From NCBI RefSeq assembly GCF_006345805.1, contig NC_043001.1, forward strand, positions 130,820,001-130,884,000: 64,000 nt of DNA, in the 5' to 3' direction. Of this stretch, positions 12,853 to 47,743 are shown piece after piece (the stretch's first letter is position 1; every line of letters starts with the position of its first letter). This DNA comes from Octopus sinensis. Its lineage: Eukaryota. The translations under genes and the position numbers were made by a program. Under the pieces are notes generated by a model that was not told the origin of the DNA, made no database searches, and saw only the letters and a program-made list of their open reading frames with translations.

Positions 12853-13135
12853 TATCTGTAAATGTAATATGTGACAATTATTTGGTAGCCATGATAAAAC
12901 TCCGAGTTTCGGATACCAAGGTGGAAATCCACATCACCATCTCTTCAGTTATCCGGCCATCAATGGTCAGATAACCAAAGAGATGGTGACATGGATTTCT
13001 ACCTCGGCATCCGAAACTCGGAGTTTTATCATGGCTACCGAATAATTGTCACATATTACATTTACAGATAAATTCCTCTATTTATATAATATTGAGGTCT
13101 CTTTCTTTCTTTTGTTGTCTTACCATTTTTATCAA
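12853..13135. mobile_element. Palindromic element with hammerhead-like motif (Penelope-like pLTR derivative), family H1
   Basis: Inverted repeat at 12853-13070 with arms of about 100 bp, plus a one-sided tail, inserted in (TA)n. Confidence 0.7.
12893..12953 (-). ncRNA. Minimal type-I hammerhead ribozyme-like motif
   Basis: Minus strand reads gataa-CTGAAGA-gat...atcc-GAAAC-tcgga-GT-T-ttatc. Core boxes are intact, helix I is gataa/ttatc and helix III is near-palindromic. Confidence 0.6.
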
Positions 13136-13198
13136 TATATATATATATTGATAAAAATGGTAAGACATTTTTGTTGAATTTCTGTTGCTTTTAAATAA

Positions 13199-13246
<48 letters not shown>

Positions 13247-13440
13247 CAATGAAAAGTCTTTAACATTTCAAGCCAACGCTCTTCCACAGAAAGAAACAGA
13301 AAGAAACAAGGAGAGAAAATAAAGAATTTGTAGTGGCTAGTGATCTATCATGGCGACATCATCATCATCAGCATCATTATTATTAGCAGCAGCATTGTAT
13401 AAGCACACATGCACACACTAAATGCATATCACATACATAC

Positions 13441-13486
<46 letters not shown>

Positions 13487-13789
13487 TTTATATTGTAAAT
13501 TATTGATAATAGAATATATACCAGAATACTCATATATCAATATGGCGTCCTCTCTATGTATGTCAGACAGAACCGTTTGACATGCAAGTTAGTACACAGC
13601 CACTCTGTTCTCTCCATCATTTACTCAATCATGCTACTTTAATTCATAACTCTTCAAATACATCACTTTTACTTTATATCCCATAGACACATCTGAACAG
13701 TCTGGTGGATTTACATGGTGAAAATAAACCCACAAACGCACACACAGATACACATACTGTTGTGAATTTATATAGTGCTTAGACAGGTT

Positions 13790-14050
13790 ACATACATAGA
13801 AAACTAAGTGTAGATGAATGGCTTGTGAGAATGGTGCAATTCAAGTATAATGATACAGACAACAAGGTGATAGTTGGCAATGTGTTTAGCAAGGAATTTA
13901 GCATGCTTGTAAGTGTTCATCAAGGCTCTGTTCTTAGCATTCTTTTGTTTATTATAGTTCTCCATGATGAAGGAGTTTATGTAAAACCAGATGTCTATGG
14001 GATCACATGTATGGTGGTAACCTGGTCCTTAAGAGCAGAGTTTGTGTAAG
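13790..14050 (+). mobile_element. LINE reverse-transcriptase relic (RTE-like)
   Basis: VDEWLVRMVQFKYNDTDNKVIVGNVFSKEFSMLVSVHQGSVLSILLFIIVL matches the RT motif GVxQGSVLSPLLF. Confidence 0.8.
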
Positions 14051-15456
14051 GCCCTAGAGAAGAGAAATTTCTGGTATTAAAAGTGAAACCTAGACTCAAA
14101 CTTGAAGAATTCAACACTTTTCATAAACTCTGCAATTTGTTAATAAGATAAAAAAAATAAGGGTAGCATATATGATGGTGATCTAATGAATGAACCTCTA
14201 CAGGAAAGAAACTTTTTACCAATTCTACAATCCTCTCTTCTATAGCAAGCTAAGGAATTTACCATGCTAATTGTTTTCCTCAGGACATCATGAACTACCT
14301 CGTCCAGGAATCAGATCCATAACCTTATAGTTGTTGGACCTAACACTCTGACCATACCCTCTCTCTCTCTCTCTCTCTCTCTGCACCTTCTTCTCTCACT
14401 CTTTCTTTCCCTGTTCCATAACCAATTTTCCAGCACCTCATTTTCACTCTCTTTTTCTATTTATATCGCTACTGTTGCTTCAACATTCCCTAGGTTCTTT
14501 TACTCATTTGTTACTATCTCCTATTTTCTCTTTTCTCACAAGGCTCCACTGCTTTATTCTCTATCTGCTGTATTCTCTTCATTGTAGCAGCAACCAGCAG
14601 TCTTTTTTTCACCTTAGCTTACTCTTTTAGGGACTTTGGGTTATCAACTTTCTTCTATCAGCTACTTGTACAAATGTCACATATTTATTATCTTGGTCAA
14701 AAGATCATCCATATAATTATCTCCTTACTCATTTTATATCCTCACTCAGTTCCATCTCAAATTTATCATTATACTGTAAGACTTTATATATTTATACTTT
14801 GATTGTTCTGCACTTTTTCCATTCTTTGCACAACATGTCTTTACATTATCATATCAGTCAAAAGATCTCCTATATTCTGTTTCAGTTTTCCTGAAAATTT
14901 CTATCTTGCTTGTACTAATTTTTTTTATACACACACATACACATATGTACACACACATAAATGAAAAACATCAAAAATATATATATATATTGATTTTGTT
15001 ATATGCATGCATATATATATATGTATATATATATAGTGATTTTTTTTTATACACATGCATAGGAGAATTGGTTTTTGAAAATGTACCTGAATTTGAAAAA
15101 CTTGTGATTGTTCTTAAATGAATCAATTTACATACATACCAAACTAGTTTTGATCATTTTTGGTTCATCAATGGTATAAACATATACAAAACAATGAGAT
15201 TTAAAAAATTTTAAATTGTGAAGTAGAAAACATGTTTAAATGATTAAATGTTCACAAAATTCAATGACAGGGGTAGATTGTTTTATATACATTTACACCG
15301 TGGACAGACAAAACTTTTTGAAGCTAGTTTGGTATGTATGTGAATAAATTTATTTAAAAACAAGCACAAATTTTTCAAATTTAGGTATATTTTCAAAAAC
15401 AAATTCTCCCATATTTTTAAATACACCCCTTCCTTCTTTCCTTCTATATATATATA

Positions 15457-15661
15457 CTGGAGTAAACACATAAACGTGAAACAAGATGGAAAAAAGAGTA
15501 CTCAAATACCAGTGGTAGAGTAATATGCTTTATTTAAAGCCGCAGAAAATTCAACAAAACCTGTTACTCTGAGCAAAAACTGTCCGTTGAACGGCAACGG
15601 GAAACTCAGAGTAACAGGTTTTGTTGAATTTCCTGCTGCTTTTCTGCTGCTTTAAATAAAG
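15457..15661. mobile_element. Palindromic hammerhead element, family H2, centre partly deleted
   Basis: Nearly identical to 46235-46492 but lacks part of the left arm and the loop. Flanked by (TA)n. Confidence 0.75.
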
Positions 15662-16106
15662 TATATATATATGTATATATATATATATAATATATATGCA
15701 CATATATATATTACTTTATTCTTTTTTACTATGTTGGAGCACCACCTTGAATGGTTTTTAGCTGAGCAAATTGACTCTAGGTCTTATTTTCTAAAGCCTA
15801 GTACTTATTCTATCAGTCTCTTTGCCAAACTGTTAAGTTACAGGGGACATAGACACACCAACACAGGTCGTCAAATGGTGATGGGGGGACAAACACATAC
15901 ACAAAGACACACACACATGTATACATATATATATATATATACGACAGGCTTCTTTCAGTTTCTGTCAACCAAATCCACTCACAAAGCTTTGGTCAACCTG
16001 AGGCTATAGTAGAAGACACTTGCCTAAGGTGCCATGCAGTGGGACTGAACCTGGCATCATGTGGTTAGGAAGCTATCTTCTTACCACACAGCCATGATTA
16101 TATATA

Positions 16107-16198
<92 letters not shown>

Positions 16199-17056
16199 AT
16201 GTAATTATAAATTAGGGTAGCTACGAGATACCACCATGCTGAAAATAGTAGCCATGATCCGACTCTAAAACCACCTTAATTGTCCATATATCAACACGGA
16301 GAGAAAACAAAGAGACAAGATGAAACTAGTAAAAATTACTGGATAATTTATATACATAAACATATATATATGTATATATATAATGATTTTTATACACATG
16401 CATGTATATATATATATATATATTATATATATATATGAAATTACTATAAATTCACAAAAAATAATGCACTCTCTCCATCAGAAATATCATATATTAATGC
16501 ATTGGTGTAGATATAACTCTATATATGTAGTTTTTAATTATCCACATACAATTAGAATGTGTCTCAGTTAACTAGGTGAACATATGTGTGTATGTGTTTT
16601 GTATGTGCAAAGAGAAGAAAGGACTCAATTTTCTATTGTTCATCATTAGGATTGGCAATTAGGAAAAAAGAATATAGGAGAAAAAAAATGGGAAAAAAAC
16701 CACAAAAGAGAGTGATACTTCTATGAAATCTATAAATATATCAACATCAAGACATCTGGGTTTTCCTGCTGACATTTGCATAACTATGTATATGAATAAA
16801 ACTGAAAAAGGTGTGCCAAACATAGAACGGATAAGAAAAGCATGTCTGGAACAATATTATTGTTTCTTTGAAAAGCCTTGTTTATTATGTTATTTCACAA
16901 GCTCACTTCCAATTCAATTGATTTCAGTTACAACTATTAAGTGTTTATGAAATAATGTCAGAGCTGTTAATTGTAACAGACAGCTTTTAACTGTCAGCTA
17001 CTTATATTACTATTAAAAGGCTTTAGCTGGAGAATGTTAGCCTATTGATGCTGACT

Positions 17057-18580
17057 AGAGAGGGTTGTTTAAAAAGAAACCAAACTTTTAAAACAGTGAG
17101 CTAACCAAGTGAACCATTATATTCATGATTGCAGTGCTATGTATAGATAACCATTGCTCTTCAATCTAATATTAGCCATACTATGCCACATCTGTCAGTC
17201 ATCAATCTACATATGATAGAGTGAATAACGATTTAGTTTACATGGTGATCATGGCCGTTTGCTAGCCTCGCCTGGCACCTGTGCAGGTGGCACGTAAAAA
17301 GAACCCACTACACTCACGGAGTTGTTGGCGTTAGGAAGGGCATCCAGTTGTATAAACACTGCCAGATCAGACTGGAGCCTGGCACAGCCTTCTGGCTTCC
17401 CAGACCCCAGTTGAACCGTCCAACCCATGCTAGCATGGAAAACGGACATTAAACGATGATGATGATGATAGTGAATTATTGCAAGTTGAACAATGAAAGA
17501 TTTGGAGAAGCAACATATTTGCTTAAAAATTGCCTTTGAATTGTGAACAAAATTTGTAGAGACTTTTGCAACCAATTTATGAGGAGGAGTATTTGCCAAA
17601 TGCAAACGCCACAATTGGTGTGAGTGCTTTACATAATAAGGAGGGATATACTCCAAAGATGAACTAATGTCTGGCACCCTTCTTTAATAGTGAGTGATGA
17701 TCATACAGAAAAAGTACATTTTGTGGTTTGTGAGAAACGTTACTAGATGGTCCATAAGATTTCCAATGAGGTAAGCATCTGCCAAAAATTGTGCTGCAGG
17801 ATTTCTAAAAGTTAAATTGAAGATGCTTTATGGTGCCACAAAATGTGTGCATGTGTGCTGACAGATGAGAAAAAAGAGCTCCAGTCAGAAGCTCTTTGGA
17901 GTGTTTAAATACTGTTGACATCTTTCTGAAGAAAGTTATTACAGGTAATGATAAATGGGTGTACAGGTATGTTGTCAAAATTAAAAGGTATCAGATCAGT
18001 GAGTTAGATCATCATCACAACTGTAAACCTCACCAAATGCACATCAGAATCATTCAAATGTGAAAGAGATGTTAATTGACTTTTTTGATTGGAAGGTTGG
18101 ACATTGTTCATGTAATGAATTTTATTTGAATGTCCTGAAGAATTAGAGAGAGGAAGTGCAAAGAAAATGGCTTGAGGTTTGGACAAACAAAATCTGGAAG
18201 CTGCACCACAACAATGCACCTGTTCATGAGTCAGGTTTTTAGTCATTACTTTTGGACAACGCATAAGCTGTGTTTCAATTCCCCACTGCCTTCCTCTCTA
18301 GGATTGAACCCTGTAAACTTTGTTTTGTTCTAAAAGTTGAGACCCACACTGAAAAATCATCAATTTCAAATGATAGAAATGATATAAAAAAGTTTGCTTT
18401 AAGAGCTGTACCCTACACCCCCAAATACACTTCAGCATGGGATCTATAAAACTGCAAAAGATACTGGGAATGTACCAGGTGTATCAGGAGTAGTGAGAAA
18501 TGTTTTGAATGAGATATTTGATTAAATTCTTGGTGAAACAATAAATTTGTTTAATTTTTCTAAAACATCAATTTCCTGTT
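17057..18580 (+). mobile_element. Decayed mariner transposon, interrupted by a family-D insertion at 17249-17469
   Basis: TIR-like GAGGGTTGTTTAAAAAGAAACC, then MKDLEKQHICLK at 17493, FLKKVITGNDKWVYRY at about 17925 (compare ITGDETWVY) and WKLHHNNAPVH at about 18195 (compare LHHDNAPAH). Many stops and frameshifts. Confidence 0.8.
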
Positions 18581-18704
18581 GGACAAGAATAAAGAGGTAT
18601 AACCAGGTATAAAGAAGATTGTTAGCAGGATTAGCACAGAGATAGATGATTTGAAAACCTAATTAAGACAGAGGGATATACCATTAAACAGATAAACATA
18701 ACTA

Positions 18705-19040
18705 TCGGAGTCGGAGACCCCTTCGGTCACGACACAGACCATGGGATTGCACCTAGAAAGTTACCCTCCTAGACACAAGTCCGGGCGAGGTTGTTTATTG
18801 AAGACCAGCAGTCGCCCATGCATACCAGCCTCCCCCCTCCAAGCCACCAGTGTTATCCAAGGGAAAGACAAAGTTCGATACAGCTTGGCACCAGTGACGT
18901 CGGAACTCATTTCTACAGCTGAGTGAACTGGAGCAACGTGAAATAAAGTGCCTTGCTCAAGAACACAACATGCAGCCCGGTCCGGGATTCGAGCTCACAA
19001 CCTCACGATCATAAGCTCGACGCTCTAACCACTGAGCCAC
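18705..19040 (-). mobile_element. tRNA-derived CORE-like SINE, family E
   Basis: Minus-strand head GTGGCTCAGTGGTTAGAGCG...GCTCGAATCCC (A/B boxes), then the CORE-like TGTGTTCTTGAGCAAGGCACTTTA. Related heads at 29820-29940, 33480-33618, 34330-34460 and 41463-41700. Confidence 0.75.
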
Positions 19041-19817
19041 ATTGAATAAAATAGGAATTGCTGAAATCCTTACAAATTTATCCAGTTTTTTCTAGTATAT
19101 CACTTATGAGTCCTTTGAATATTTTACACTCGAGAGAAACGTATTTCATGGATACTTTGCTCACCTCAAATACTCTCCATAATATGCAGCTGGCACAAAT
19201 AAACAGCTTGAGTTCAGGCCACAACAGAACAGCAGCCAGCTAACCAGTTTTGATATGGAGGTATCTAGAATCCTCCCTAAATTCAGTAACTCTGAATTAG
19301 AAATCCCACTGACTGTGATGGCCCATCCAACCAATATCAGTATGGAAACTGGACATAAAAAAAGGAGAATAACGATAATGCTTATTGTATTTTACATAAT
19401 TCATTGTACTATTTTCCATTCCATGTAATTCTCTGCATGTTATTCTTTATCATCTCTTTTTGTGTTTCTGTTGATTCCCTTATATCTTTAACCACACCAT
19501 TATAGGTATCCCTAGGGCAGTGAGCTGGCTAATGCATTACAGTGTCAGACAAAGTGCACTGCGATATTTATTCTGGCTCCGAGTTCAATTCCTGTTAAAG
19601 TCAACTTTGTCTTTGATCCTTCTGGGACCAATAAAATGAAATGGTATCGTCATGCCTTAGAATTTCTGGCCTCATGCTTAAATCAGAAACCAACTAAGAG
19701 CTCCGCTCGAAACGTTAAGCCCTCCTTCTTCCCTTCCTTTCTGAGCGTCCAATAATACTATATTTGTTCCACGTCCTCACGTTGTTATGTTTACTCTTTG
19801 TGTTTGCATGTTTGGAT

Positions 19818-19861
<44 letters not shown>

Positions 19862-21908
19862 CACACAATAAGAGATACAAAATACATAGTTTTCAAAATT
19901 ATACTTGTTCCTTTGGTTCCTTAGTCCAATATGTTGTTTGATATATCTGCAATACTCAGATTTATTAGTATTGTTTATCATTTGTTGGGTATTTTCTTAC
20001 CAAATTATTACAACCTCCTCTAAAATATGCATTACAGTTACTAATCATCCCACATAAAACTATAACTTAGTACTCCTTTTTTCGTGTATACAGATACACT
20101 CATAATTGGATGCTCTTCCACTCTTGATGATAACAACCTTAAGAAAATTTATAGCTCTAGTAGTCACCGACCCTAAGTATAATTATTGAGCCTATTCAAA
20201 CTTACCCTTACTGTTATTAACATTTATAATCATTCTTATCATACAATCTATGCTTAATTTGCATATAAATTGAGTTCATCTCCCTCTTGATTTGACTCTA
20301 AAATCTATTTAGAGAGAGAGAGAGAGAGGTAGGACCCTGTCTCTTTATTCCTTCTGGCTTTATGAGGCCTATTTTTAATTTGATTTGCTCATCCCATTAT
20401 GTAATTAGCTTTTATCTATCATTGTCTTAACTATAATTATATCTTTAATTATAATTCTACTCAAAGTGAGACCCTGTCTATATGTTCCTTTTGGCTCTAT
20501 AAGCTTTGTTTACAATTTTACTTTCTCTTCCTATTATTTGATCATTCTTCATTTATTTTCGTGTTAACTATAATTATATCTTTAATTTCACTTAATTCTT
20601 AATACTCACATGCTCATATTAACTCCTACGTTTCTACTAATCTTGAAAAAAAATCTCTTCACAACCCCACATAAAACCTTAATATTGAAAATATAAACCC
20701 TATCTTTTAGTTTCCTACTCACTGTTTCATAAATACATGTTGAATTACTCCCCCTTATCACAAAGTAAATTAAAAATTTTTCAGATTTATTTTTTTGAAA
20801 TTTCTTGTAAGGGCTTCTTTTATGTTTATCTCTAATTTCAATACATACAATTCTAAAACTAGGATTTTTTTTTTCATCCAGACACTCATAGAATTCATAA
20901 CTTTATGGAGGGAATCTACAAAAAAAGCAATTAACTACTGCTGTTCCAGCTCTTAACTAGACTATATTATAGCTTCTCTGCTCTCGATCATTATTATGAA
21001 AAAATAATCAGAAGATGAAACCAGGACATCCCAACTAGTAATCACTACTTTCAACTAATATAAATAACATACAATTATTCTGTATTTATTTATATTATCT
21101 AACATTCATGGGGTAGGCTCTTGCAGTTTGAGTAAATTCTTATTTAGAATTTCTTTTGACATGAGTATATATGTCTAGTGTAAAATGGTATTACACAAAT
21201 AAATAGCTTGTTGTGGTTATCTAAAAACTAACCTATCGCAGAAATATATGTTAACACAGAATGCATTCCATCTACTCGAATACTCAGAATTTACTGTTCA
21301 ACAACTAACTCTTGAACTAACACAAAATAATCCAACACTGTTGAACTAAGTCATCAACTAAGGACCTCTGACAGTTCACTCATTTCTTATTTATTGTAAC
21401 TGGTTAGTCCATCTTCAGTCATGAGGCGGTATCCAGAATTCTCCCATAATAGAATTATTACATTCAAGATGGGTTAGAGTACCAGATCTTCTACAATCAA
21501 TTTTTTTTTTGTTTTGGCAAAGTTTCTATGACAGGATGCTCTTCCAAATACCAACCATTGTATAGAGAGTCTGGGATACATTATATTGTGGTACCAACAC
21601 TAGAAAAGTCCCCTGTAAGTCATCTCAATTCTACAGAGTGTCTGTTCTTTCAAATAAAGCATTTCTCAGAATGATAAGCAAAGGGGAATGACAATGAAAG
21701 TGGTGAAGGAGGTGAATATGCAAGTGTGAAACAGGATGATTAGATGTAGTGTGCAAATGCATGTGCATGTAGGCCTATAAATACTACACACACATACACA
21801 CACATACATACACATGCACACATACATATACACACATGTATGTATATATATTATATAAACACACACGTGTATATATATATATATATATATGGCAAATGAA
21901 AGATGGAA

Positions 21909-21964
<56 letters not shown>

Positions 21965-22022
21965 TATATGTAAATATATATATATGAGTATATGTAAATA
22001 TATATATATATGAGTATATGTA

Positions 22023-22059
<37 letters not shown>

Positions 22060-22074
22060 ATATATATATATATA

Positions 22075-22303
22075 AGGCGGCGAGCTGGTAGAATCGTTAG
22101 CACGCCGGGCGAAATGCTTTGCGGTATTTCGTCCGCCGCTACGTTCTGAGTTCAAATTCCGCCAAGGTCTACTTTTCCTTTCATCCTTTCAGGGTCGATA
22201 AATTAAGTACCTGTTACACACTGGGTCGATGTAATCGACTTAATCACTTTGTCTGTCCTTGTTTGTCCCCTCTATGTTTAGCCCCTTGTGGGTAATAAGA
22301 AAA
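22075..22303 (+). mobile_element. tRNA-derived SINE, family B (Deu/Nin-like central motif)
   Basis: Head GGCGGCGAGCTGG...GAGTTCAAATTCC followed by CCTTTCATCCTTTC.GGGTCGATAAATTAAGTACC. Second good copy at 34503-34733. Degraded copies at 1-25, 3845-4050, 11232-11410, 19515-19690, 42405-42605 and 60003-60205. Confidence 0.8.
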
Positions 22304-22315
22304 CATATATATATG

Positions 22316-22362
<47 letters not shown>

Positions 22363-23175
22363 GCACACACTGTTGACAAGTATAGTTCTTTTATGAAATG
22401 CAACGATCACTTTGCCTTTTGCCAATCTTTCTTTTTTAGTAATAAAGAAATATATAATATGAATTGAAACCACTGGCCTGACCAGAAAGAAAGTGGACTC
22501 TTTAATGTAATTACATGAGTTGATTTACAAAAATGAAAACAAACAATGAAATAAAGACACTGGATAAAACCACCACCATCACAACAACAACAACAATGAT
22601 GAGAACTACAACAAATTTCCATTGTTTCTGAAGGAGAGGTTTTTTTTATGTGTCTATCTTTGTTTATTTTATATAAATATAAATAATAATCTAGAAAATT
22701 TTTATTACCTGTAAACACAAACCATCAGTATGAGTACAAATTTTATAGAGTGACATCATCACATCAAGCAGAAAGAAAACAAAAACAAAAATCCAAAATA
22801 AAACAAATGATTCAATTATAAATAGTACCGTATAAGAAGAGACAGAGAAGCTGCATTGAGCAAGTATTAAATAGTAAGAGACAGAATAATTAAAGAAATA
22901 AAAAAAATACATTGAGTATTAACCATCAAAATGGAATAATAAATCAATTCCATTTAAAGTGATTCTTTTAAATGATGTTTTGTTTTTGTCTCCGAATAAT
23001 AGAATTCTTTGAGTGAAATTGGTTGTTTTATTTTCAGCCAAATAACATTATTTTTTATTTGTAAAAGAAAAAAAAAATCTTTATCATTTTATGATTTATT
23101 TTGACTGTTGAAATATGTAGATAGTTAAAGGTGCAAATTTTGTGTTAGCTTCTCTTCCACGTCCCAATTTATATT

Positions 23176-24600: not shown

Positions 24601-26807
24601 ATAAACACACACATCCATATGCACACATTTATACAGACACCTACAAGTTCCAGTGTCATCATCTAATAAAAAATATTCCTCTTTTTATATGTGCAGAACT
24701 GGGTGTATATATACGCATGAATACTGGTATTTACATCTACACAAAGATACACATATAAATAAATATTCACATATACATACCCTATCAAATACAGTATGTA
24801 TACTTTACTTATAATATACACATATATAACTATCTGATCCATGCCACATACTGGTTGTCAAGCAGTAGTAGTGGACACATGCAGCCACAGAACACAAAGA
24901 CCCACACTCATAGATACATATGACAGGCTTCTTTCAGTTTCCATCTACTAAATCCACTCACAAGGTTCTGATAGGCCCAGGACTCTAGACAGCTGCTTTA
25001 AGATGCCTTGGATTGGGACTGAACCTAGAATCATGTGATTAGGAAGCAAACTACTTACCACTCAACCACACCTACACTTATGTATGCATGTATGTATGAT
25101 TGGATGTATATATGTGTGTATGTGTATCTGTGTATGTATGGATGTGTGGATGTATGGATGTGTGGATGTATGGATGTGTGGATGTATGGATGTGTGTATG
25201 CATGCTTGACTATGTAGTATCGGTTACTCATGAATATGTACAAATATATGAATATATAAATATGTCTAAATATTAGCAGATTTCAAATTGATGAAACAAA
25301 CCATGTGAAGTGGACTGACTACCTTGAAAGTTTTATATACATGTGTGCATGTTTGTATGTGTGCGTGTGTGTGTTTGTGTGTGTGTGTGTGTGCGTGCAT
25401 GTGTCTGTGTGTGTGTGTACAATGAATCATTTTTGTTTTCTGTAAGAAATAATCTTGTAATTAAAAGATAAAGATTTATATTCAATCACACACACGACCA
25501 ACATATGATAGCTGTTTATGTAAGAGACCTGTTCAAACATGAAGTCCAAATGGTTTTAAACTTGCAACTAACTATAAATGCACCTTGTTTAAGAGTGGTT
25601 TCTACTTGTCTTGCATATTCTTGTCTAAAGTTTACAGAGGAAAAAAAAAAAATGATTCTTTTAACTAGTTTTTTTTTTGCTTTGTTATTTAGAAAAGTAA
25701 TGTAATTAAAAAGTTTGTTAGCTCAACATAAATGTCTCACATGAGAGATGTTAATTGTGTAAATAATATTCAATGCAGAACAGCAAAACACCTAATACCT
25801 TTTCTCTGTAATATCTTACGTATTCATTTAATGATATATATCATCATCATCACTTAACATCCGTCTTTGTGCATGCATGAGCAGGACAGTTAGCAGGAGT
25901 CGGCCAGCTAAAAGACTAACCCTAGGCAACTGTGTCTGTTTTGGCAGGGATTTTATGGCTGGATACACTTCCTAATACCTATCACTCTGTAGATTGGACC
26001 GAGTGCTTCTTACTACACTACAACACCTGCACCTGTATATAGCATTGTAAACTATGCATAACAAAATGGGTGAGGATTCTTCTAAAAGTCTCCCTCAACC
26101 TGGGGAACATCCTTAATTCCAGAACAGAGGTCTTTGGACCATGCTTGCACTTCAGGTTATTTCTGCTACCTATTTGAACCCACAAAATAACAGGGTCACT
26201 CGTGATCAATAGCCAAAGGGAGAAATCCCTTGTTGTTGATACTGAATTTCCTCCTCCATATACTAGAGAAGTCACTAGAGAGGCCTTAGGCCGACAGGTT
26301 TTGGGATCTGATGATATGCCGTAAACCTAAGCAGTTTATGGACATGAAACCCAGGGTAATCTCCTAATTCGGCCTTATTTAACTTTAAAGGGATATATTA
26401 TCACAGTGTTACCGTGTTTCCTCTTATTTCAGTTTCAGATGCTGGCTAACCACAGCAGTCCTTTTATTATATCCAAGTTAACAACAAATTGCTAGATTCT
26501 GGTAACTATTCTTGCTAGGAAAATCTGAGTGCCCTATTCAGGACTGCATAGTTTCTGTAGAGAAGGTAACAGCATTAAAAATCATAAGAACAGAGATTTC
26601 TCGTATCTGTAAATAACAGTTTAATAAAATTACAGATGTAAAAAACCTCTGTTTTTATCATTATTAATAATACTATATATGATATATATATAAAATATTT
26701 TATAAACTCTATAGGCACGAAGGAATTTCTGAAGTAAATCCAGTGATATTTACATCCATACTGCTGATGATGATGTCAGGTAGCCGAAAACAGTGAACGG
26801 GCTTTAA

Positions 26808-36434: not shown

Positions 36435-36468
<34 letters not shown>

Positions 36469-38107
36469 CATTATTTTCACTCAACAAAAATAAATATATA
36501 TGAGTGAACAGAAATGTGTATCTGTTTGGGAGATAATTTATATGAAGATAGTGAGACAGATCTCTGCATTTAATTGTATGAGTTTTTGAGTGTGTGTGTG
36601 TGCATGTGTGTGCATGTGTATGCACGCATGAATGTATGTATATATGTATGAATATATGTATGTATGTCACAGAGACTGGAAGACAAAGAGAGAATGTCTG
36701 AGTTTGAATATTCATTTGTGTGTGTATATATATTTGACCATGTGAGTGTCTGTGTTTGTGTGTACACATGTACACTCTTATAGTTGAATGTTTATGTATG
36801 TATGTATGTATGTATGTATTTGAATGAAAGTATGGGTAAGATCAGAGTGGTAGTTTAAATATGTACATATACTATTTCCCTCTCTCCTGGTTCCCTCTTT
36901 CTTTCTCTCCCCCTCTCTTTCTGCCACCCCCCCTCTTCTCTTAATTATTTTTCCTCTATCAATAGTGCTTATGAGGAAGTTAGTGGTGTGCACTAGAGAC
37001 TATTGAAAAGTCATATACATTCATATATATATACTCACACACATAAATGTATTTATGTATATGTGTATATATAATTAAATGCATTTATATATATATATAT
37101 ATGTGTGTGTGTGTATGTATGTGTACATATATGTCTGTGTGTGTGAATAGATATTTATATTTTAATATGAACAGAAGCATATACACAAACCCACGCATAC
37201 ACATACTCAGAAGCACACATATATATACATATATATATGTATCATGTATATGTATGTATTTATATGGAAGTTACAGTTATTGATTAGAATGAAAGAGGAC
37301 AATGGAAAATCACCTTGCTTACATAGATTAATAAAATAGCTTACAGTTTATTTTTCTGCTTTTTCATATTATGAAATAAAAGCTTCATTGAAAGATACAA
37401 TACTAAACAATATCACACACGTACACAACACAAAACATTGAATACACATCACACTCACAATGATGATAGGAAAAAAAATAAAATAAAACATGAAAAGGAA
37501 AAAAAAAAAACAATAACAATAATGAATATATAAATAAATAATAGCATGAAAAGAGAAAGAAAAAATAACAGTACAATGAACCTATAATAATAAAAAAAAA
37601 GAAAGAGTAGTTGTGGTAATAATATTGTTGTTGCTGCTGTTGTTGTAATAGTTATGTTCATCAATGGGTTAGTCAAACCTTTGTCATGAGAAATTTTGAA
37701 TGAGGAAATTATTAGCTAGTTCTAAAAGGTAATGTTGTGGTGATGGAGTGAGAGAGTGCGAGAGAGAAAGGAAAGAGAGGGCTTAGCAGATGAGAAAGAG
37801 AGAGAGAGTGAAAGAGTGACAGAAAAAAAAGGGAGATAGGTAAGAAAAGAGAGACAGTATGAGAGGGAGACAGACAGACAGACAGAGAAACAGGCTTTAG
37901 AATTGAAGGTTCAAGTTATGTCAGGTTCAACTTTATCGTTATTTATTATTATTAAGATAGGTGTTGGGATACAAGGAAATAATAACAGCAGGTGGGGGGG
38001 GAGCTTGGCATGGGGGGAGGACTGTGTAGTGGTGGTGGTGGTGGTGGTGGTGGGAAAGTTGTGTATTTAATTTAATTTTAACTCATTTCATTTTATATCA
38101 TGCCATG

Positions 38108-38173
38108 TCAAGTCATGTCATTTTTCGTTTTCGTTTCCAATTTTTTCGGTTTCCCAATAAAGTCCTCTGATTT
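38108..38173 (-). CDS. Candidate terminal exon of an unidentified minus-strand transcript (frame unknown)
   Basis: Strong acceptor (T-rich tract ending TTTCCCAACTTTCCAG). All three frames stay open for about 55-65 nt and then close in TGACATGACTTGA. About 2.7 kb of transposon-free, UTR-like sequence follows. Confidence 0.3.
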   Translation of the reverse strand, partial: KSEDFIGKPKKLETKTKNDMT

Positions 38174-38584
38174 CTGGAAAGTTGGGAAAAAAATATAAAG
38201 GAGGGATCCTATCTAGAGTCTGTGTGTGTGTGTGTGTGTGGTGGGGGGTAATGGTCATGATGGTCGTGATGGAAAGAAGGCGGTCTAAGAGAGTGAGTCA
38301 TTTGAACTTGAATCAAGGAAAGGATTGGTGTATCTGTTGATAACAAATATTGTGGGTCCTGTCTGAAAGAAAGGTCCCCAAAACTTATTATGTAGCCAAT
38401 GGCTTACTTGTGTTCTACTGTTTGAGGAGTTTTAGCAAAAGAACATAAATATAGCTTAAATTCTGCATTATTTTGAAGGATATTTTATATTGTGCATTAA
38501 TGCAGAGATGTAATTTATTTATTCATCATCATCATCATCATTATCATCATCATCATTTAACATCCACTTTGTTCTAGAAGGTAA

Positions 38585-39225
38585 TGTCGTGGTGATGGCT
38601 CAAGCACAGCGTTTCTCCAAAGGTCTTGGTTGCTTGTCATTGTCTCTGTAAGGCCCAACGTCTGAAGGTCATACTTCACCACCTTATCCCATATCTTCCT
38701 GGGTCTACCTCTTTCACAGGTTCCCTCCATTGTTAAGGTGTGACACTTCACCCAACTGTCCTCATCCATACACAACACATGACCATACTAGTGCAGTCAC
38801 ATCTGATACACACCACATCTGATGCTTCTTATGTCCAACTTTTCTCTCAGTGTGCATACACTCTGTTGTGTACGGACACTGACATTACACATCCAGTGGA
38901 GCACATTAGCTTCATTTCTTCCAGGCCTACACATGTCCTCATCAGTCACAACCCATATTTCACTGCCATGTAGCATGGCTGTTCACACACATGCATTAAA
39001 CAGTCAACCTTTCACTCTGAGCAAGAAGCCCTTTGTTACCAGCAGAGGTAGGGGCTCTCTGAACTTTACCCATGCTATTCTTATTCTAGTGGCTATGCTC
39101 TCAGAGCATCTACCCCCATTACTGACTTGGTCATCTAGGTAATGGAAGCTTCCAACTGCTTCTAGTTTTTTTCCCCGGCATGTGATGTAATCTGTTTTCT
39201 GTACATCTTCAGTTATAAATCATTT
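38585..39225 (-). mobile_element. RTE-clade LINE 3' ORF relic
   Basis: Same family as 9260-9930. Minus-strand translation MDEDSWVKCHTLTMEGTCERGRPRKIWDKVVKYDLQTLGLTETMTSNQDLWRNAVLE. Confidence 0.88.
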
Positions 39226-40650
39226 ACCTGTTTTTAAGTTACAAAACAATTTGTCACAGTATTAGAATTTTTTTATTCATCATCATCATCATCATCGTTT
39301 AACGTCCATTCTCCATGCTAGCATGGGTTGGACGGTTCGACTGGGGATGTGGGAAACCAGAAGGCTGCACCAGGCTCCAGTCTTATCTGGCAATGTTTCT
39401 ACAGCTGGATGCCCTTCCTAACGCCAACCACTCCGTGAGTGTAGTGGGTGCTTTTTACGTGCCACCCGCACAGGTGCCAGGCAAGGCTGGCAACGGCCAC
39501 GGTCGGATTGGTGCATTTTACATGCCACCGGCATGGAAGCCTGTCAAGGCGGCGCTGGCATCGGCCACTATTCGGATAGTGCTTTTTACGTAGCACCAGT
39601 CCAGGGGTCCTGGCATCTGCCAGGTGCCAGTCATAGGATTGGTTCAATTTCGATTCCGATTTCGATTTCACTTGCCCCAACATGTCTTCGCAAGCAAAGG
39701 GGTTTGGCATGGGTGCCTGTCGTCAGATGAGGTTCGATATCGACTTCGTTTGCCTCAACAGGTCTTTGTGTCCAAGGGAGGAAAGGCATGCATAAGTGGG
39801 CTGGGCTCACTTGTCCTGCCTGGTCTTCTCATGTACAGCATCCAACTATTTCTCTGTCTTTTATAACTTTATATATATATTAGCAACAGAGGCAATATTA
39901 ATACAGAAAGGTAATACTTATCACCACTTAAACGTGGATTTTCTATTAGAACAAATTATACTAAAGGCACCCGTACTGGTGACACTTAAATGGCATTCAT
40001 GCCAGCAATATGTACAGATATAGGCGCAGGAGTGGCTGGGTGGTAAGTAGCTTGTTTACCAACCACATGGTCCCGGGTTCAGTCCCACTGCATGGCACCT
40101 TGGGCAAGTGTCTTCTACTATAGCCCCGGGCCGACCAAAGCCTTGTGAGTGGATTTGGTAGATGGAAACTGAAAGAAGCCCGTCGTATATATGTATATAT
40201 ATATATATATGTTTATATATATATATGCGTGTGTGTGTTTGTGTGTCTGTGTTTGTCCCCCTAGCATTGCTTGACAACCGATGCTGGTGTGTTTATGTCT
40301 CCGTTACTTAGCGGTTCGGCAAAAGAGACCGATAGAATAAGTACTGGGCTTACAAGAGAATAAGTCCCGGTGTCGAGTTGCTCGATTAAAGGCGGTGCTC
40401 CAGCATGGCCGCAGTCAGATGACTGAAACAAGTAAAAGAGTAAAAGAGTAAAAGAGAGACATCCAATACACTTTGAGGAGTGGTTGGCATTAGGAAAGGC
40501 ATCAAGTCATAAAAACCAAGCCAAAAGAAGTCTGGATCCTGGTGCAGCTCTCTAGCTTACCATCTCCACTCAAACAGTCACATGTATGTCAGCATGGAAA
40601 AGAGAGGTGAATATATATATATATACATATATATATAAATATATATATAA

Positions 40651-41058
40651 AAGAATTTTTTGTGTAATAGGATAAAAAAACTGAGGCTGTGTAGATATTA
40701 GAGCAATTATAGATAGAAGGTCTTACAGCTTTTTCTAGGATATTTATTAATAATATCCCTTCATCTGAGACAGTGTGAGAGGATAGTTAAGTCACACCAT
40801 CTCCGATGACAGGATATAGTTAATAAATGTCCTAGAAACAGCTGTAAGACCTTCTATCTATAAATGCTCTAATATCTACACAGCCTTGGTTTTTTTATCT
40901 TATTATGCAAAAAATTCTTATATACATACGCTGACATAGAACCAAAGTTGAACCCTTTATTCGCAATATCACTGAATCTGGAACTTAACTATGGTCTGTC
41001 TATAGCACTTATTCAGCATTACCTGACACCTTTGGGTCCCAGCAACACCATTATCTCT
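40651..41058. mobile_element. Palindromic hammerhead element, family H3
   Basis: Inverted repeat at 40651-40919 plus a one-sided tail. The plus arm reads atct-CCGATGA-caggatat...atgtccta-GAAAC-agct-GT-A-agac. A centre-deleted relative lies at 5130-5312. Confidence 0.7.
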
Positions 41059-41241
41059 TTTATATATATATATATTATATATATATATATATATATCATC
41101 ATCATCATCATCATTTAGCGTCCGTTTTCCCTGCTAGCATGGGTTGGACGGTTCAACTGGGGTCTGTGAAGCTGGAAGGCTTCATCAGGCCCAGTCAGAT
41201 CTGGCAGTGTTTCTACGGCTGGATGCCCTTCCAAACGTCAA

Positions 41242-41300
<59 letters not shown>

Positions 41301-41347
41301 TATACATATATATAACATATATATATAAATATATATGTAAATATATG

Positions 41348-41402
<55 letters not shown>

Positions 41403-41407
41403 GTATT

Positions 41408-41459
<52 letters not shown>

Positions 41460-42005
41460 CAAAAGGCATATGGCTAAGTGGTTAAGCCACAGCACTCATG
41501 ATCGCAAGGTTATGATTTCAATTCCTGATGTGTTTGGTTGATGTTCTTGCACAAAATATTTCATTTCACATTGCTCCAGTCCACTCAACTGGCAAAATGA
41601 ATAATCCTACAATGGACCAGCAACCTGTCATGAGAAAGGAAGTTGCACACTGCAGAATCTAGGAAACCAGCCTTATCAGCCTATGGCTCAGGTAAGTCCT
41701 TTGATCCTTTCCCTTTTTATATCATTGTTTAACATGCTGGTTTGGATGGGAGAGTTCAAGAGGATCCAACAAGTTAGAGGATAGCATATACACACACATA
41801 CACATACACACAGCACACACAGACACATGCATGCATGCACACACATGTGCAATACTGGCTTCTATATCGTCTCTGTCAACCAAATTTCACTTGCAAGGTA
41901 TTGGTCAACTAGTAGTAGAAAACTCTTGCCTTAGGTATTACACTGCAGAACCAAATCTGGAGCCACATACAGGCAAAGTGGGCCTCATACAGTCATGACT
42001 ATGTC

Positions 42006-42036
<31 letters not shown>

Positions 42037-42848
42037 GGATACATATACATATATATAACATATATATATATATATATACATCATCATTGTTTGACATCCA
42101 TCTTCCATGTATGCATGGGTAGGACAGTTGACAGGAGCTGGCCAGGTAGAAAACTATCCTAGGCTACTTTGTCCATTTTGGCAGAGTTTTTACAGCTGGA
42201 TGCCCTTCTTAACACCAACCACTCCATAGAGTGGACTCAGTGCTTTTTACATGGCACTAGCACAAGCAAGGTTAGTTCTGGTATGGTTTTGACAGCTGGA
42301 TGCCCTTCCAAATACCAACCACTTTACATACATATATATATATATATATATACATACATGTGTGTGTATACATATACACCATGCCAGTATGGAATCTTTT
42401 ATACTCTAGGCACAAGGCCCTAGATTTTGGGGAAGGGGAGCAATTGATTAGATCGACCCCAGTAAGTAACTGGTATGTCATTTATCGACTCCGAAATGAT
42501 GAAGGGTAAAGTCGGCCTTGGCGGAATTTGAACTCAGAACGTAAAGGCAGACGAAATACTGCCATGCATTTCCCCCAGTGTGCTACAGTTTCTGCCAGCC
42601 TGCTCCCTTTATGCCAGTATGGAATCTAGCCACTAAATGATGATGATCATGATGATGATGTATTCAAATGTATGTATATGTGTGTTGCTGTTCAAGGCAA
42701 TTGCTAATGTTATATCTCATACTCTGAGTATAAGTGACATTCCCCACTTCATACACTCACTTCCTGGCACCCCTGCCCCTCCCTCACCCACCTACTTTGA
42801 AGAGCTATTCTGATGCTTCATCACAGCTTTTATCACCTCAGACTCTGT

Positions 42849-43119
42849 GCAATGACCTCTAATAGTATGGTGTTATATGCACCCAATGACCTACCATATG
42901 GCATTTTATGAACTGAGTGACCTTTCATGATGCAAATTCAATGACCTATCCTACGGTATAATATGAACTTGATGACCTGTTATATGATATAATATGAACT
43001 TGATGACCTATCATACAATATAACATGAACACAATGACGTATCATATGATTATGATCTGCACTCAGTGACCTATATCATATGAACTCAATGTTGTATCAT
43101 ATGATATGATGAGCTCAAT
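42849..43119. repeat. Diverged minisatellite with a unit of about 31 bp (CAATGACCTATCATATGATATAATATGAACT-like)
   Basis: About 9 diverged units, each anchored on TGACCT/TGAACT. Confidence 0.75.
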
Positions 43120-43971
43120 GACTTAAGACGGTATGGTATGAAATCAGTGACCTGCTATTTTATGATAGGATTTAAATTCAGTAACGGATCTTATGTCATA
43201 AAACCAACAACTAGTATACCAGTCATGACCTAAGACGGTATGGTATGAAATCAGTGACCTGCTATTTTATGATAGGATTTGAATCAGTAACGGATCTATG
43301 TCATAAAACCAACAACTAGTATATACCAGTCATGACCTAAGACGGTATGGTATGAATCAGTGACCTGCTATTTTATGATAGGATTTAAATTCAGTAACGG
43401 ATCTTATGTCATAAAACCAACAACTAGTATACCAGTCATGACCTAAGACGGTATGGTATGAAATCAGTGACCTGCTATTTTATGATAGGATTTAAATCAG
43501 TAACGGATCTTATGTCATAAAACCAACAACTAGTATACCAGTCATGACCTAAGACGGTTGGTATGAAATCAGTGACCTGCTATTTTATGATAGGATTTGA
43601 TTCAGTAACGGATCTTATGTCATAAAACCAACAACTAGTATACCAGTCATGACCTAAGACGGTATGGTATGAAATCAGTGACCTGCTATTTTATGATAGG
43701 ATTTGAATTCAGTAACGGATCTTATGTCATAAAACCAACAACTAGTATACCAGTCATGACCTAAGACGGTATGGTATGAAATCAGTGACCTGCTATTTTA
43801 TGATAGGATTTGAATTCAGTAACGGATCTTATGTCATAAAACCAACAACTAGTATACCAGTCATGACCTAAGACGGTATGGTATGAAATCAGTGACCTGC
43901 TATTTTATGATAGGATTTGAATTCAGTAACAGATCTTATATCATAAAACCAACAACTAGTATACCAGTCAT
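43120..43971. repeat. Tandem array, 8 near-identical copies of a 107-bp unit
   Basis: Units start at 43120, 43227, 43334, 43440, 43546, 43651, 43758 and 43865. Confidence 0.95.
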
Positions 43972-44244
43972 ATGATGTGAATCGCCCATACAATAGTCGA
44001 ATACTTTATCGTTTAAGCAACTTTGTTTCCATGGATGGCTTTTTGATACACCCTATTATGCATATACATACGATTACACATATATTCATCACAACATCAA
44101 CATCAACGCACCGCCATGCTAATTGCATGTACACACATAGAAACATTTATAATACATGCTCCATTTCCTATTCAAAATACCCCTTTTCCAGTTCACCTTT
44201 ATTCTTAAAAGCCTTACCCTCCACCATGACAGCAATGACAAAAA

Positions 44245-44790
44245 CGATGACGACGACGACGACGACGACCACCACCACCACCACCACCACCACCACCGCT
44301 ACCACCACAACCACCACCACCACCACCACTACCACCACCACCACCGCTACCACCACAACCACCACCACCACCGCTACCACCACAACCACCACCACCAACA
44401 CTACCACCAAAACACCACACACTACCACCACCACCACCACTACCACCACCAAAACCACCACGCTACCAACCACAACCACCACCACCCACCACTACCACAC
44501 CACCACCCTAACCACCACAACCACCACCACCACGCTACCACCACAACCACCACAACCACCACCAACCACTACACCACCACCACCGCTACCACCACAACCA
44601 CCACCACCACCGCTACCACCACAACCACCACCACCACCGCTACCACCACAACCACCACCACCAACACTACCACCACCACCACCACCACCACCACCACCAC
44701 CACCACCACCTCCACTACCGCTACCACCACAACCACCACCACCAACACTACCACCACCACCACCACTACCACCACCACCACCACAACTTT
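44245..44790. repeat. (ACG)n/(ACC)n degenerate trinucleotide tract
   Basis: Direct reading. It accounts for the poly-T, poly-P and poly-H ORFs. Confidence 0.9.
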
Positions 44791-45802
44791 CACCTCATCA
44801 TGGCGTTATTTCCCTCATTTTCCACCAGACAAACCATATCAAACCCTGTTACATCTCTCAGTTGTTTCTTCCTCCTTGTCAAGATACCACTCCAGTACCC
44901 CTTTCCTCACACTACCCTAAATAGCATCTTTTCTCAATCTCCCTCTCAGACTCCATCACCATATTACCATCTCTCTCTCTCTCTCTCTTGCCCTCTTCTT
45001 TCTTTCTCTTCCCAACACTCTCACACCCATTAATACTCTATCTCTTACTCATTTATGATCAGGTTCTTCCTTTCACAATATAAGAAACTTCTCTCGCTCT
45101 CTCTTATTCATTTCCCCTCTCCTAGTTCATCTATCTATCAACAGACCAGGTTCCCCAATTCAAAATACCACTAGAAAACTATCTTTCTTACTCTATTCTA
45201 TTCTATTCTATTCTATTCTATCGTCATCTCTCACTTCGTCACTCTTTTGTTATCTCCTTCTTCCCTCCTTACCCCCAGCCTATTTCCTATCTATGATCCA
45301 TGTTCCTTTTTACAAAACATCAATATAAAGTTATTTTTCACTCCCATCTTTACTCCCATCAACCTTTCTGCCACACTCTCTCTCACTTTGTCTCCCTTTC
45401 TCCCTCTTGCTCTCTCTCTCTCTCTCATTCATTCCTCTTCTTTCTCTGGTACCCTCATTGCCCTTCTTACTCACTCAACCCCCCAACTACCTACCTACCT
45501 ATGGAATAGAATATTCATTTTGAAATAACATATGAAAGCTGTCAAAGTTAAGTGTAATGAGACAAAAAGAAGTTAAAGCATATCTTGCCACTTGCAACAA
45601 TTATGACATGTCGTAGCCAATTATCACTGGTAAATCAATAACCACTTCTTCTCCAATCATAATCCCAGTGAATGGCAAGGTGATGTGATGGGATTATAGA
45701 TATACATATATATATAGAGGATTTTATATATATATATATATATATACATACATATATATACATATACACATATATATATATACATATATATATGTATATG
45801 TT

Positions 45803-45835
<33 letters not shown>

Positions 45836-46234
45836 ATAGATAGAGGATTGTATAAACTATATATGTTGTAAATGTATACGCCTCTCCCCAATATGTGTGT
45901 GTGTGTATATATCATCATCATCATCATCATCGTTTAACGTCCGTTCTCCATGCTAGCATGGGTTGGAAGGTTCGACCGGGGTTCTGGGAAGCCAGAAGGC
46001 TGCACCAGGCTCCAGTCTAATCTGGCAATGTTTCTACAGCTGGATGCCCTTCCTAACGCCAACCACTCCGTGAGTGTAGTGGGTGCTTTTTACGTGCCAC
46101 CTGCACAGGTGCCAGGCGAGGCTGGCAACGGCCACGGTCGGATTGGTGTATTTTATGTGCCACCGGCACGGAAGCCAGTCGAGGCGGTGCTGGCATCGGC
46201 CACGAGTCGGTATATATATATATATATATATATA

Positions 46235-46491
46235 CCGGAGTAAACACATAAATGTGAAACAAGGTGGAAAAAAAGAGTACTCAAATACCAGTGGTAGAGT
46301 AATATGCTTTATTTAAAGCAGCAGAAAATTCAACAAAATCTGTTACTCTGAGTTTCTCGTTGCCATTCAGCAGACAGTTTTTGTTAGAATGGAACTGATA
46401 TCGGTTCCATTCCAACAAAAACTGTCTGATGAATGGCAACGAGAAACTCAGAGTAACAGATTTTGTTGAATTTTCTGCTGCTTTAAATAAA

Positions 46492-46492
<1 letters not shown>
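46235..46492. mobile_element. Palindromic hammerhead element, family H2 (complete)
   Basis: Near-perfect inverted repeat at 46307-46492 plus a one-sided tail of about 70 bp, within (TA)n. Confidence 0.75.
46422..46459 (+). ncRNA. Minimal type-I hammerhead ribozyme-like motif
   Basis: ctgt-CTGATGA-atggcaacga-GAAAC-tcaga-GT-A-acag. The core is intact, helix I is ctgt/acag and helix III is near-palindromic, but helix II is weak. Confidence 0.6.
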
Positions 46493-46528
<36 letters not shown>

Positions 46529-46534
46529 TATATA

Positions 46535-46761
46535 GGTTCAGTAAAATTTAGATTCAGATGAAAATGGTACTTAAGTTGAAGGCACCAGAATTTAGTATGG
46601 TAATATCCATATAATTTAAACTAAGGTGATTATAATCAAAATAAACAACAAGGATATCCAGAAGTAGTGTAGTACGATCGTTTCATGCAACTTCAATTAA
46701 ATAGAGTCACATGAAAAGATCATACTGCATTACCTCTGGATATCCTTGTTGCTTATTTTGA
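46535..46761. mobile_element. Palindromic element, family H4 (only the hammerhead 3' half retained)
   Basis: Inverted repeat at 46636-46761. The minus arm reads GAAAC-gatc-GT-A-ctac. A tail lies on the left and both flanks are (TA)n. Confidence 0.6.
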
Positions 46762-47119
46762 GTATATATATACATACACACACACATATATATGTTTGTA
46801 TATATGTAAAGGTAAGATCCAAGGATCAAGGTGTAGGAAGTTAGTAAGCTTCAAGCAATCTGTAGAAGGTATAAAAAAAACAACATTCATGAACAATAGT
46901 AGTTTATTGGTATCGAATGTTGTAAATTTTTCCCATATCAAAAGTTCAATAAGCTGAAAAGGTGATTTTATAGTTTACAGTTACCAATTGAGTTTGCTGT
47001 GTATGCAAATAAAAACCCAAATTTCAAGAATGGATCAAATTTATGGAATGGAGTATTTGCTCCATTCCCTAAATTTGGATTTTTCCTCTGTCTTCCCTTC
47101 TCTGGATCTTTCCTTCTCC

Positions 47120-47260
47120 TATGTTTCCGACGAAGAGCTCCACTCAAAACATTAAACCCTCCTTCTTCCCTTCTTTCCTGAGCGTCCAATAATACTATAT
47201 TTGTTACACGTCCTCACGTTGTTGTGATTTTTTGCATTTTCTTGTTTGGATCAACTTTAT
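47120..47260 (+). mobile_element. One-sided hammerhead-like pLTR fragment, family H6 (second copy at 19696-19822)
   Basis: gttt-CCGACGA-agagctccactc-AAAACATT-aaac here, and GAGCTCCGCTC-GAAACGTT at about 19698-19716. The two copies share a tail of about 110 bp ending in (TA)n. Confidence 0.55.
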
Positions 47261-47379
47261 ATATATATATATACGTTTATATATTTGTTTGCAAAATTTT
47301 TTATTGGCTAAACTGGCAAAATGACCATTCCAAAATATAACAATATATATATATATTATATATATATATATATATATAA

Positions 47380-47411
<32 letters not shown>

Positions 47412-47419
47412 AATAAATA

Positions 47420-47743
47420 TTAGGGAATAAATCCAAATTTACAAGGAAAAATCAGATTTAAGATTGAATCCAATTTTATAATGAAATATTATATTATATC
47501 AAATTAGAGACAAAACCACTATTATGCAAATCAAACAAAGAAAGACTTAAGCCAATACATAAAATAATTATATAAATTAAAATTTAACATATGAATAACC
47601 ACTACGATCGTTTCGCGTCAGCACATCGTAGTGGTTATTCATATGTTAAATTTTAATTTATATAAATTATTTTATGTATTGGCTTAAGTCTTTCTTTGTT
47701 TGATTTGCATAATAGTGGTTTTGTCTCTAATTTGATATAATAT
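47420..47743. mobile_element. Palindromic element, family H5
   Basis: Near-perfect inverted repeat at 47491-47743 with arms of about 115 bp. The centre retains GAAAC-gatc-GT-A on the minus strand. Confidence 0.65.

Follow-up and report, generated by a model that had tools for sequence, protein, structure and literature searches.

The window examined in this study is a 64,000-nucleotide (nt) stretch of the Octopus sinensis genome (NCBI RefSeq assembly GCF_006345805.1, contig NC_043001.1, positions 130,820,001 to 130,884,000 of the forward strand). It contains small palindromic elements with hammerhead ribozyme motifs, which are interpreted here as truncated ends of Penelope-like elements (PLEs). 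Self-comparison of the window located palindromes at 12853-13070 (90% identity between arms), 15536-15642, 40642-40928, 46307-46492 (97%), 46631-46766, and 47495-47739 (94%). In agreement with the preliminary description of this DNA, all of them have (TA)n flanks and a tail on one side only, as is also seen in locus alignments. Five families are distinguished by their copies, namely, A (46235 and 15457), B (12853), C (40651 and 5130), D (46535), and E (47420), and two one-armed families are F (47120 and 19696) and G (13255); the same-family pairs are thus 15457/46235, 5130/40651, and 19696/47120. The tails measure approximately 72 nt in A (46235), 60 in B (12853), 135 in C (40651), 98 in D (46535), and 68 in E (47420). 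The five palindromic families had been described as unrelated in sequence, which holds for A-E, as BLAST gave no cross-hits among them; F (47120) and G (13255) share one cluster at the hammerhead. Below, an arm that ends with the tail is called T and an arm that ends without it N; pLTR denotes the pseudo-long terminal repeat of a PLE. The features of the window are as follows, with the strand given where one was assigned:

5136-5311: short head-to-head stub of family C; tailed arm 5136-5248, tail-less arm 5249-5311, neither of which reaches the hammerhead
12853-13133: head-to-head stub of family B; tail-less arm on the - strand with an intact core, CUGAAGA, at 12948, tailed arm on the + strand with a mutated core
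13140-13200: inverted end of a B tail (28 nt) joined to a tail-less end of family A; a chimeric insertion or a local inversion
13241-13352, - strand: one-armed copy of family G, cut short on its 3' side; family core CUGUNGA (A6 to U)
15456-15662: head-to-head stub of family A with a shorter junction and a mutated core
19690-19825, + strand: one-armed copy of family F, truncated within the core
26295-26370, + strand: additional intact hammerhead of a family outside A-G, core at 26308
40646-41059: head-to-head stub of family C; tailed arm on the + strand with core CCGAUGA at 40803, a 7-bp helix II, and a palindromic loop 3
46236-46492: head-to-head stub of family A; tail 46236-46306, tail-less arm on the + strand with an intact core at 46426
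46533-46766: head-to-head stub of family D; junction within the long loop II, leaving only the 3' half of the hammerhead
47080-47259, + strand: one-armed copy of family F; minimal hammerhead without loop 3, mutated in this copy
47418-47749: head-to-head stub of family E; junction within helix II / loop 3, leaving only the 3' half of the hammerhead
62493-63400, + strand: broken PLE fragment with a reverse transcriptase (RT) thumb and GIY-YIG endonuclease (EN), CxCX5C linker, interrupted by another repeat at ~62945-63165

Each family is repetitive throughout the AT-rich, 2.72-Gb genome: searches returned 1351-3748 first-look candidates per family, which are candidates and not copy numbers. A fixed-step sample of 60 stretches of 10 kb (600 kb) held 19 loci of families A-G, and rough extrapolation from these suggests tens of thousands of stubs in the genome. 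In the best 30 loci per family, one end point is fixed and runs into (TA)n, the inverted arm stops a fixed distance earlier, and the position of the central junction differs from copy to copy; the palindrome therefore appears to be rebuilt at each insertion. Longer copies yielded the full hammerhead of every family, including D and E, whose copies in the window are cut within the motif.

The rule of one tail per palindrome was assessed in 30 B loci that had been chosen by protein search, blind to their termini. Sixteen of these are head-to-head, each with one T and one N outer end (12 were scored by script, L215 and L218 were read separately, and L226 and L304 are partial tandems whose 'TT' calls were rejected since their outer ends are tail and no tail). 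The tail is on the shorter arm in eight and on the longer side in the other eight (in L313 by tandem extension), and the junctions show 2-9 nt of overlap in 9/14 and 1-37 nt inserted in 5/14. At several loci (L325, L334, L336, L149, L311, and L226), short reiterated segments lie at the junction, consistent with repeated primer slippage during end joining. Among 110 pairs of 148-3494 bp in the collected sequence, 108 were NT, 2 NN, and none TT, a tally biased by the queries, most of which were NT; 'NN' calls at L141 and L064 were rejected as probe artefacts, and that at L353 is ambiguous. With a one-sided A query, 21 of 28 loci are two-armed, the tailed arm reaching further in seven, the tail-less arm in nine, and both equally far in five, while the junctions range from -48 to +23 of the core. 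The two arms are thus truncated independently of each other. The tail-less arm stops 60-135 nt short of the tail end. Head-to-head copies of this architecture range from 150 bp to ~4 kb, up to complete open reading frames (ORFs), so that the mini-elements are the doubly 5'-truncated extreme of one length series.

The arms of three families run into PLE ORFs. For B, the terminus of that family was found at the end of loci with long open frames, and most of 30 ORF-selected loci have it. One of them (L303) is a complete (TA)n-pLTR-ORF-pLTR-(TA)n element of 2.85 kb with a 708-amino-acid ORF, and full-length frames are also present in L301 and L302; the B stub of the window (12853-13133) is ~85% identical to the 3' pLTR of such young ORF-bearing, Hydra-type PLEs. 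The 708-amino-acid protein has 979 homologues at E <=1e-20 among 7999 scored. Its single ORF comprises an RT followed by a C-terminal GIY-YIG domain, and the FD..Y, GS.DG, and Y.DD motifs are near-invariant in 120 homologues, in which the Hydra diagnostics RWK, DKT (DKG changed to DKT), CxCX5C, CxxC, and CxH are conserved as well. For A, locus L372 carries RT and EN, then ~1.1 kb, and then the A end, and in 6 of 20 loci chosen by N-terminal protein search the A tail runs ~60 nt into a start codon. For E, the terminus follows an ORF with a CxCX5C linker in L354 and L353. A pattern search found the CxCX5C linker, CxxC, and CxH in the B and A ORFs; in the E ORF, CxCX5C and CxH were recognised in the translation. 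The E ORF also has asparagine-rich inserts between RT and EN (L354:723-1976, L353); similar inserts are described, in the part of the source consulted, for Penelope elements of Adineta (PMC3846280).

The Hydra clade is defined by the RWK, DKT, CxCX5C, CxxC, and CxH motifs, according to the portion consulted of Craig et al. (2021, PMC8557442). Judged by these motifs (RWK and DKT in the B ORF, the linker and CxH in all three), the A, B, and E arms are continuous with Hydra-type ORFs, and the (TA)n insertion and pLTR hammerhead of that clade are found here too; the assignment is made by motif. The Neptune clade was considered and rejected, as its CX2-5CxxC linker is absent from the B and A ORFs and from the fragment at 62493. 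The latter had been recognised as a PLE relic, and it is a genuine endonuclease fragment, which as a query retrieved 150 scored endonuclease fragments; no link from it to the stubs of the window was found. Relatives of the hammerhead at 26295-26370, which the preliminary description had not listed, adjoin Hydra-type ORFs (L225, L392, and L394). Families C and D gave no continuous ORF in eight long loci each, with ~620 nt in common upstream of the end in C and up to 1.6 kb in common in D. Apparent links were rejected for F in L357, where a TA run separates it from the ORF, and for C (L356) and D (L352), as continuity of the nearby ORFs with the arms was not shown.

The continuity with ORFs bears directly on what kind of element these palindromes are. 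Long inverted repeats, TA flanks, small size, and high copy number would suit miniature inverted-repeat transposable elements (MITEs) of TA-targeting, Tc1/mariner-like DNA transposons that bear hammerhead-like words by chance. The termini, however, are asymmetric owing to the one-sided tail, the length varies from 150 bp to ~4 kb, arms enter RT ORFs, spliced copies exist, and hammerhead motifs exceed controls. A, B, and E thus originate from retrotransposons, for which the MITE reading is refuted by arms that run into RT ORFs, and it is highly improbable overall. The preliminary description was correct in seeing PLE pLTR ends with minimal type-I hammerheads rather than MITEs; its further proposal of a separate guild of ORF-less elements mobilised in trans fails for A, B, and E, whose arms continue into PLE ORFs and whose architecture is the same at all lengths.

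Variants, splice joints, and chimeras bear on the templates from which the arms were copied. Among 15 long B loci, eight have variants that both arms share and no other arm carries (17 such variants); in 28 A stubs, the arms agree at 41 common and 4 private variants and disagree at 17 common and 42 rare ones. In family E, one locus (L371, the sole match to a guessed exon-donor pattern) retains exon|GT..1.1 kb..AG|exon, the GT..AG intron of ~1.1 kb ending just before helix I. The 32 E hammerhead starts divide into 16 that are spliced, 9 with the intron retained, 3 that come after the 3' untranslated region (UTR) of an ORF, and 4 of other kinds; the spliced joint is present on both arms in L133 and L149, and in L379 all four are unspliced. 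As read from these joints, some templates were spliced RNA. Copies of family C (L355 versus L356) lose their similarity upstream of a pyrimidine-rich ..TTTTAG boundary, which suggests that C, like E, has a 5' intron. Locus L148 is a chimera, in which an E tailed arm is joined without a gap to an A tail-less arm, each ~99% identical to young copies, and the tail/no-tail polarity is retained. Weaker candidates are L171 (E-like plus F) and window 13140-13200, and a D/F chimera in L100 was rejected, being a neighbouring insertion. At L358 (L111), the partner of a D tailed arm, met at a short inverted repeat, is an antisense piece of another PLE-like ORF with a YRQP motif, which makes this locus a possible inter-clade chimera.

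One way to obtain an inverted arm is self-priming or fold-back on one strand, with an antisense template, as has been proposed for rotifer Penelope elements (PMC3846280, consulted in part). Private variants common to both arms would follow from it, and many A junctions lie on short self-complementary words. A fold-back copy can neither exceed its template in length nor acquire a tail absent from it, yet in 8/16 loci the shorter arm is the tailed one; moreover, spliced joints on both arms suggest that a sense-spliced RNA was involved at some generation, and the A/E chimera requires two templates. Fold-back is therefore regarded as unlikely. Two target-primed complementary DNAs (cDNAs), one per RT start site, are preferred over self-priming because of the one-tail rule, the shared private variants, the spliced copies, and the A/E chimera. 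The palindromes are thus most probably 5'-truncated head-to-head insertions of PLE ends, each likely built from two separately target-primed cDNAs.

The following sequence of events is proposed for such an insertion, namely, I) the enzyme would cut both strands of (TA)n; II) each free target end would prime RT at one of two internal start sites of fixed position, the two ends usually using the same source transcript; and III) the 3' ends of the two cDNAs would be joined head-to-head by microhomology. If both cDNAs stopped near the structured hammerhead region, a palindrome of 150-450 bp would result, and such stubs are likely dead on arrival. That each target strand is primed at a different site and that the two cDNAs are then joined head-to-head is what we infer from the combined evidence, together with the in vitro behaviour of a Poseidon PLE described below. 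Either a single RNA may have been copied two times or a pair of sibling RNAs may have served, and gene conversion may have contributed to some extent.

Several observations weigh against this account. Pfam finds no RT domain in the ORF and only a weak GIY-YIG (E 0.009-0.02), so that RT identity rests on the motifs and on Atlas neighbours of the 708-amino-acid protein, which include clusters with GIY-YIG and RVT_1 members; PDB sequence searches gave no match. Families C, D, F, and G could not be linked to an ORF, the two E loci L353 and L354 may not be independent, and the B copy of the window differs by ~15% from the young ORF subfamily. A genome-wide exact-pattern search for TT palindromes of family A with a gap of 280-310 nt, the commonest length class, returned none, in keeping with the one-tail rule, but it had no positive control. 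Among the 15 long B loci, the partner arm ranks as nearest neighbour in only four and within the top four in nine, and some common A variants are discordant between arms (9/17 lie in two junction-adjacent columns). Shared private variants could also be explained by gene conversion after insertion, and only one chimera (L148) is unambiguous. Lastly, family F is one-armed in 29/30 loci (a single hit each) and has a near-fixed 5' start, within ~20 nt in 26/30, in a set whose queries favoured near-full-length copies.

It is conceivable, though we lean against it, that F, G, spliced E, and possibly C and D are ORF-less non-autonomous PLE derivatives that have their own promoter and are mobilised in trans, like short interspersed nuclear elements (SINEs). 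The clustered starts and missing inverted arms of F fit this, as do the sole exact exon-1 donor locus for E, which is flanked by a simple repeat and not by an ORF, the E subtypes, which are alike in sequence only from the last exon onward, and the eight long C and eight long D loci without an ORF; L148 suggests that one enzyme is able to take A and E RNA alike. Against this, a fixed 5' end is equally expected if RT begins within the 5' pLTR of a transcript from an autonomous element and reaches the cap, the F queries picked near-full-length copies, and family A itself seemed ORF-less until targeted searches revealed its ORF. In addition, RNA downstream of the start sites is required according to the portion consulted of PMC11167929, where this is shown for one element only, and such RNA is missing from tail-ended stubs. 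C, D, F, G, and the spliced/intron E subtype may be either stubs or non-autonomous elements.

Returning to two separately primed cDNAs, a more far-reaching interpretation, held only tentatively and a little short of an even chance, is that the stubs record an integration intermediate of PLEs, in which a two-subunit enzyme primes on both strands of the cut target with one subunit at each RT start site, the same RNA is usually read twice, and the cDNAs are joined head-to-head. F and G would then be a SINE-like parasite of PLEs that carries a hammerhead with a fixed A6U core. If so, one mechanism would cover the tail, the inverted pLTR, and the one-tail rule, it would replace the antisense self-priming model, and occasional inter-family chimeras would be predicted.

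The hammerhead motifs occur beyond chance. A strict descriptor gave 9 hits in the 600-kb sample versus 0, 1, 0, 0, and 1 in Markov controls and 1 in the reversed sequence. In the same sample, without pre-filtering for helix I, a helix I of at least 4 bp accompanies 11/28 matches to CUGANGA..GAAAC..GUH versus 0/8 in both reversed and complemented sequence, and the motif is therefore not attributable to chance. In 2.05 Mb of collected sequence, which preceding searches had enriched for these elements, 256 hits formed 32 clusters, of which 17 are multi-copy; loop 3 is palindromic in 12 of these 17 (2.2 expected, with an empty loop scored as palindromic), and cofolding predicted an intermolecular helix III for 4/6 families. 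The preliminary description had attributed full or partial motifs to the palindromes. These are real, but a complete core is present in only 3 of the 10 named window copies, namely, 46235, 12853, and 40651, each in one arm and the last with U4C; the core is mutated in 15457, 47120, and 13255, reduced to the 3' half in 46535, 47420, and 19696, and absent from 5130. Targeted Rfam scans likewise gave one sub-threshold Hammerhead_1 match (12892-12954, 13 bits, E 1.3) and no match at two further sites, and among the best 150 of 323 matches from the whole window, which were microRNA (miRNA)-like or AT-rich, there was no hammerhead.

The conserved G10.1-C11.1 pair was not recovered, as G/C flanks helix II in only 2/17 clusters; this pair is usually mismatched, A/A, U/U, A/C, or A/U flanking helix II in most clusters, and in F/G a G-C pair follows a bulged A at helix II. 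U4C is frequent among the cores. Nearly all of ~18 copies of family G have CUGUNGA, with U fixed at core position 6 and position 7 free, while helices I and II are kept, a G-C / C-G exchange setting helix I apart from that of F. Natural variants of low activity include A6C and U4C according to the portion consulted of PMC3088659, in whose main text the string A6U does not occur. From their sequence, these PLE pLTR ends carry minimal type-I hammerheads, of which self-cleavage is putative. Predicted folding energies are -74 to -196 kcal/mol for whole palindromes versus -5 to -19 for hammerhead monomers and -15 to -45 for dimers, and RNA transcribed across a palindrome is predicted to form a single long hairpin. 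Most arms hold sequence from both sides of the predicted cleavage site, and 34/49 arms of the one-sided A set, whose query favoured this, span the whole core; the templates would therefore have been uncleaved or re-ligated. In the stubs, the hammerhead is probably just carried along as part of the pLTR, as a passenger.

Further repeats in the window comprise an old palindrome of 72% identity at 15059-15412, in which no hammerhead was seen and which is unmatched in the collected sequence (perhaps a true MITE, perhaps a decayed stub), tandem repeats of a ~107-nt unit at 43118-43971, and a local duplication of ~0.7-1 kb with 97% identity at 54575-56290.

For annotation, these findings matter in that the stubs would pass as MITEs or miRNA-like hairpins and that Pfam misses their RT. 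For mechanism, the one-tail rule, the 8-vs-8 split of the tail, the spliced arms, and the chimera make sharp predictions that are testable in the existing in vitro PLE system. The formation of tandem and inverted PLE structures is named as unresolved in the part consulted of Craig et al. (2021, PMC8557442), and a literature search on a head-to-head, target-primed, or twin-priming mechanism for Penelope, with subscription journals, Repbase, and Dfam outside its reach, returned nothing relevant. The inverted 5'-truncated pLTR, the one-sided tail, (TA)n targeting, and opposite-strand hammerhead pairs are already in print.

Comparison with known systems is based on the portions of the sources that were consulted. 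The elements resemble the Hydra clade of C-terminal EN+ PLEs (PMC8557442) in their ORF motifs, an element size of <3 kb, (TA)n targets, a pLTR hammerhead, partial tandems, an inverted 5'-truncated copy, and a tail at one end. They differ in that many families, unrelated to one another in sequence, occur here at high copy number and mainly as stubs of 150-450 bp, in having tails of 60-135 nt rather than 30-40 nt, and in the long 3' UTRs of the A and E elements. With the minimal PLE hammerheads of Cervera and de la Pena (2014, PMC4209133) they share the type-I core, a short helix I, a palindromic or absent loop 3, and a predicted dimer, whereas here G10.1-C11.1 is not conserved, U4C is common, and A6U occurs in family G; opposite-strand pairs 100-700 bp apart and an intron ending beside helix I were already noted there. 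For the Poseidon element PAc in vitro, two internal RT start sites bound the tail, both target strands are cut and extended, and uncleaved RNA is used as substrate (Frangieh et al. 2024, PMC11167929); it belongs to a different clade and its tail lies inside the ORF, whereas in A and B the tail is upstream of the ATG, and a term search of the main text of that paper found no mention of genomic inverted or palindromic insertions. Two loci in the collected sequence (L269:7997-8494 and L270:5192-5674) hold retrozyme-like head-to-tail hammerhead pairs ~490 nt apart with an 8-nt loop 3. Non-LTR retrozymes (bioRxiv 10.64898/2026.07.22.740005) are likewise ORF-less, hammerhead-bearing, and related to PLE pLTRs, but they are head-to-tail tandems with at least two hammerheads, whereas the copies in the window are head-to-head or single.

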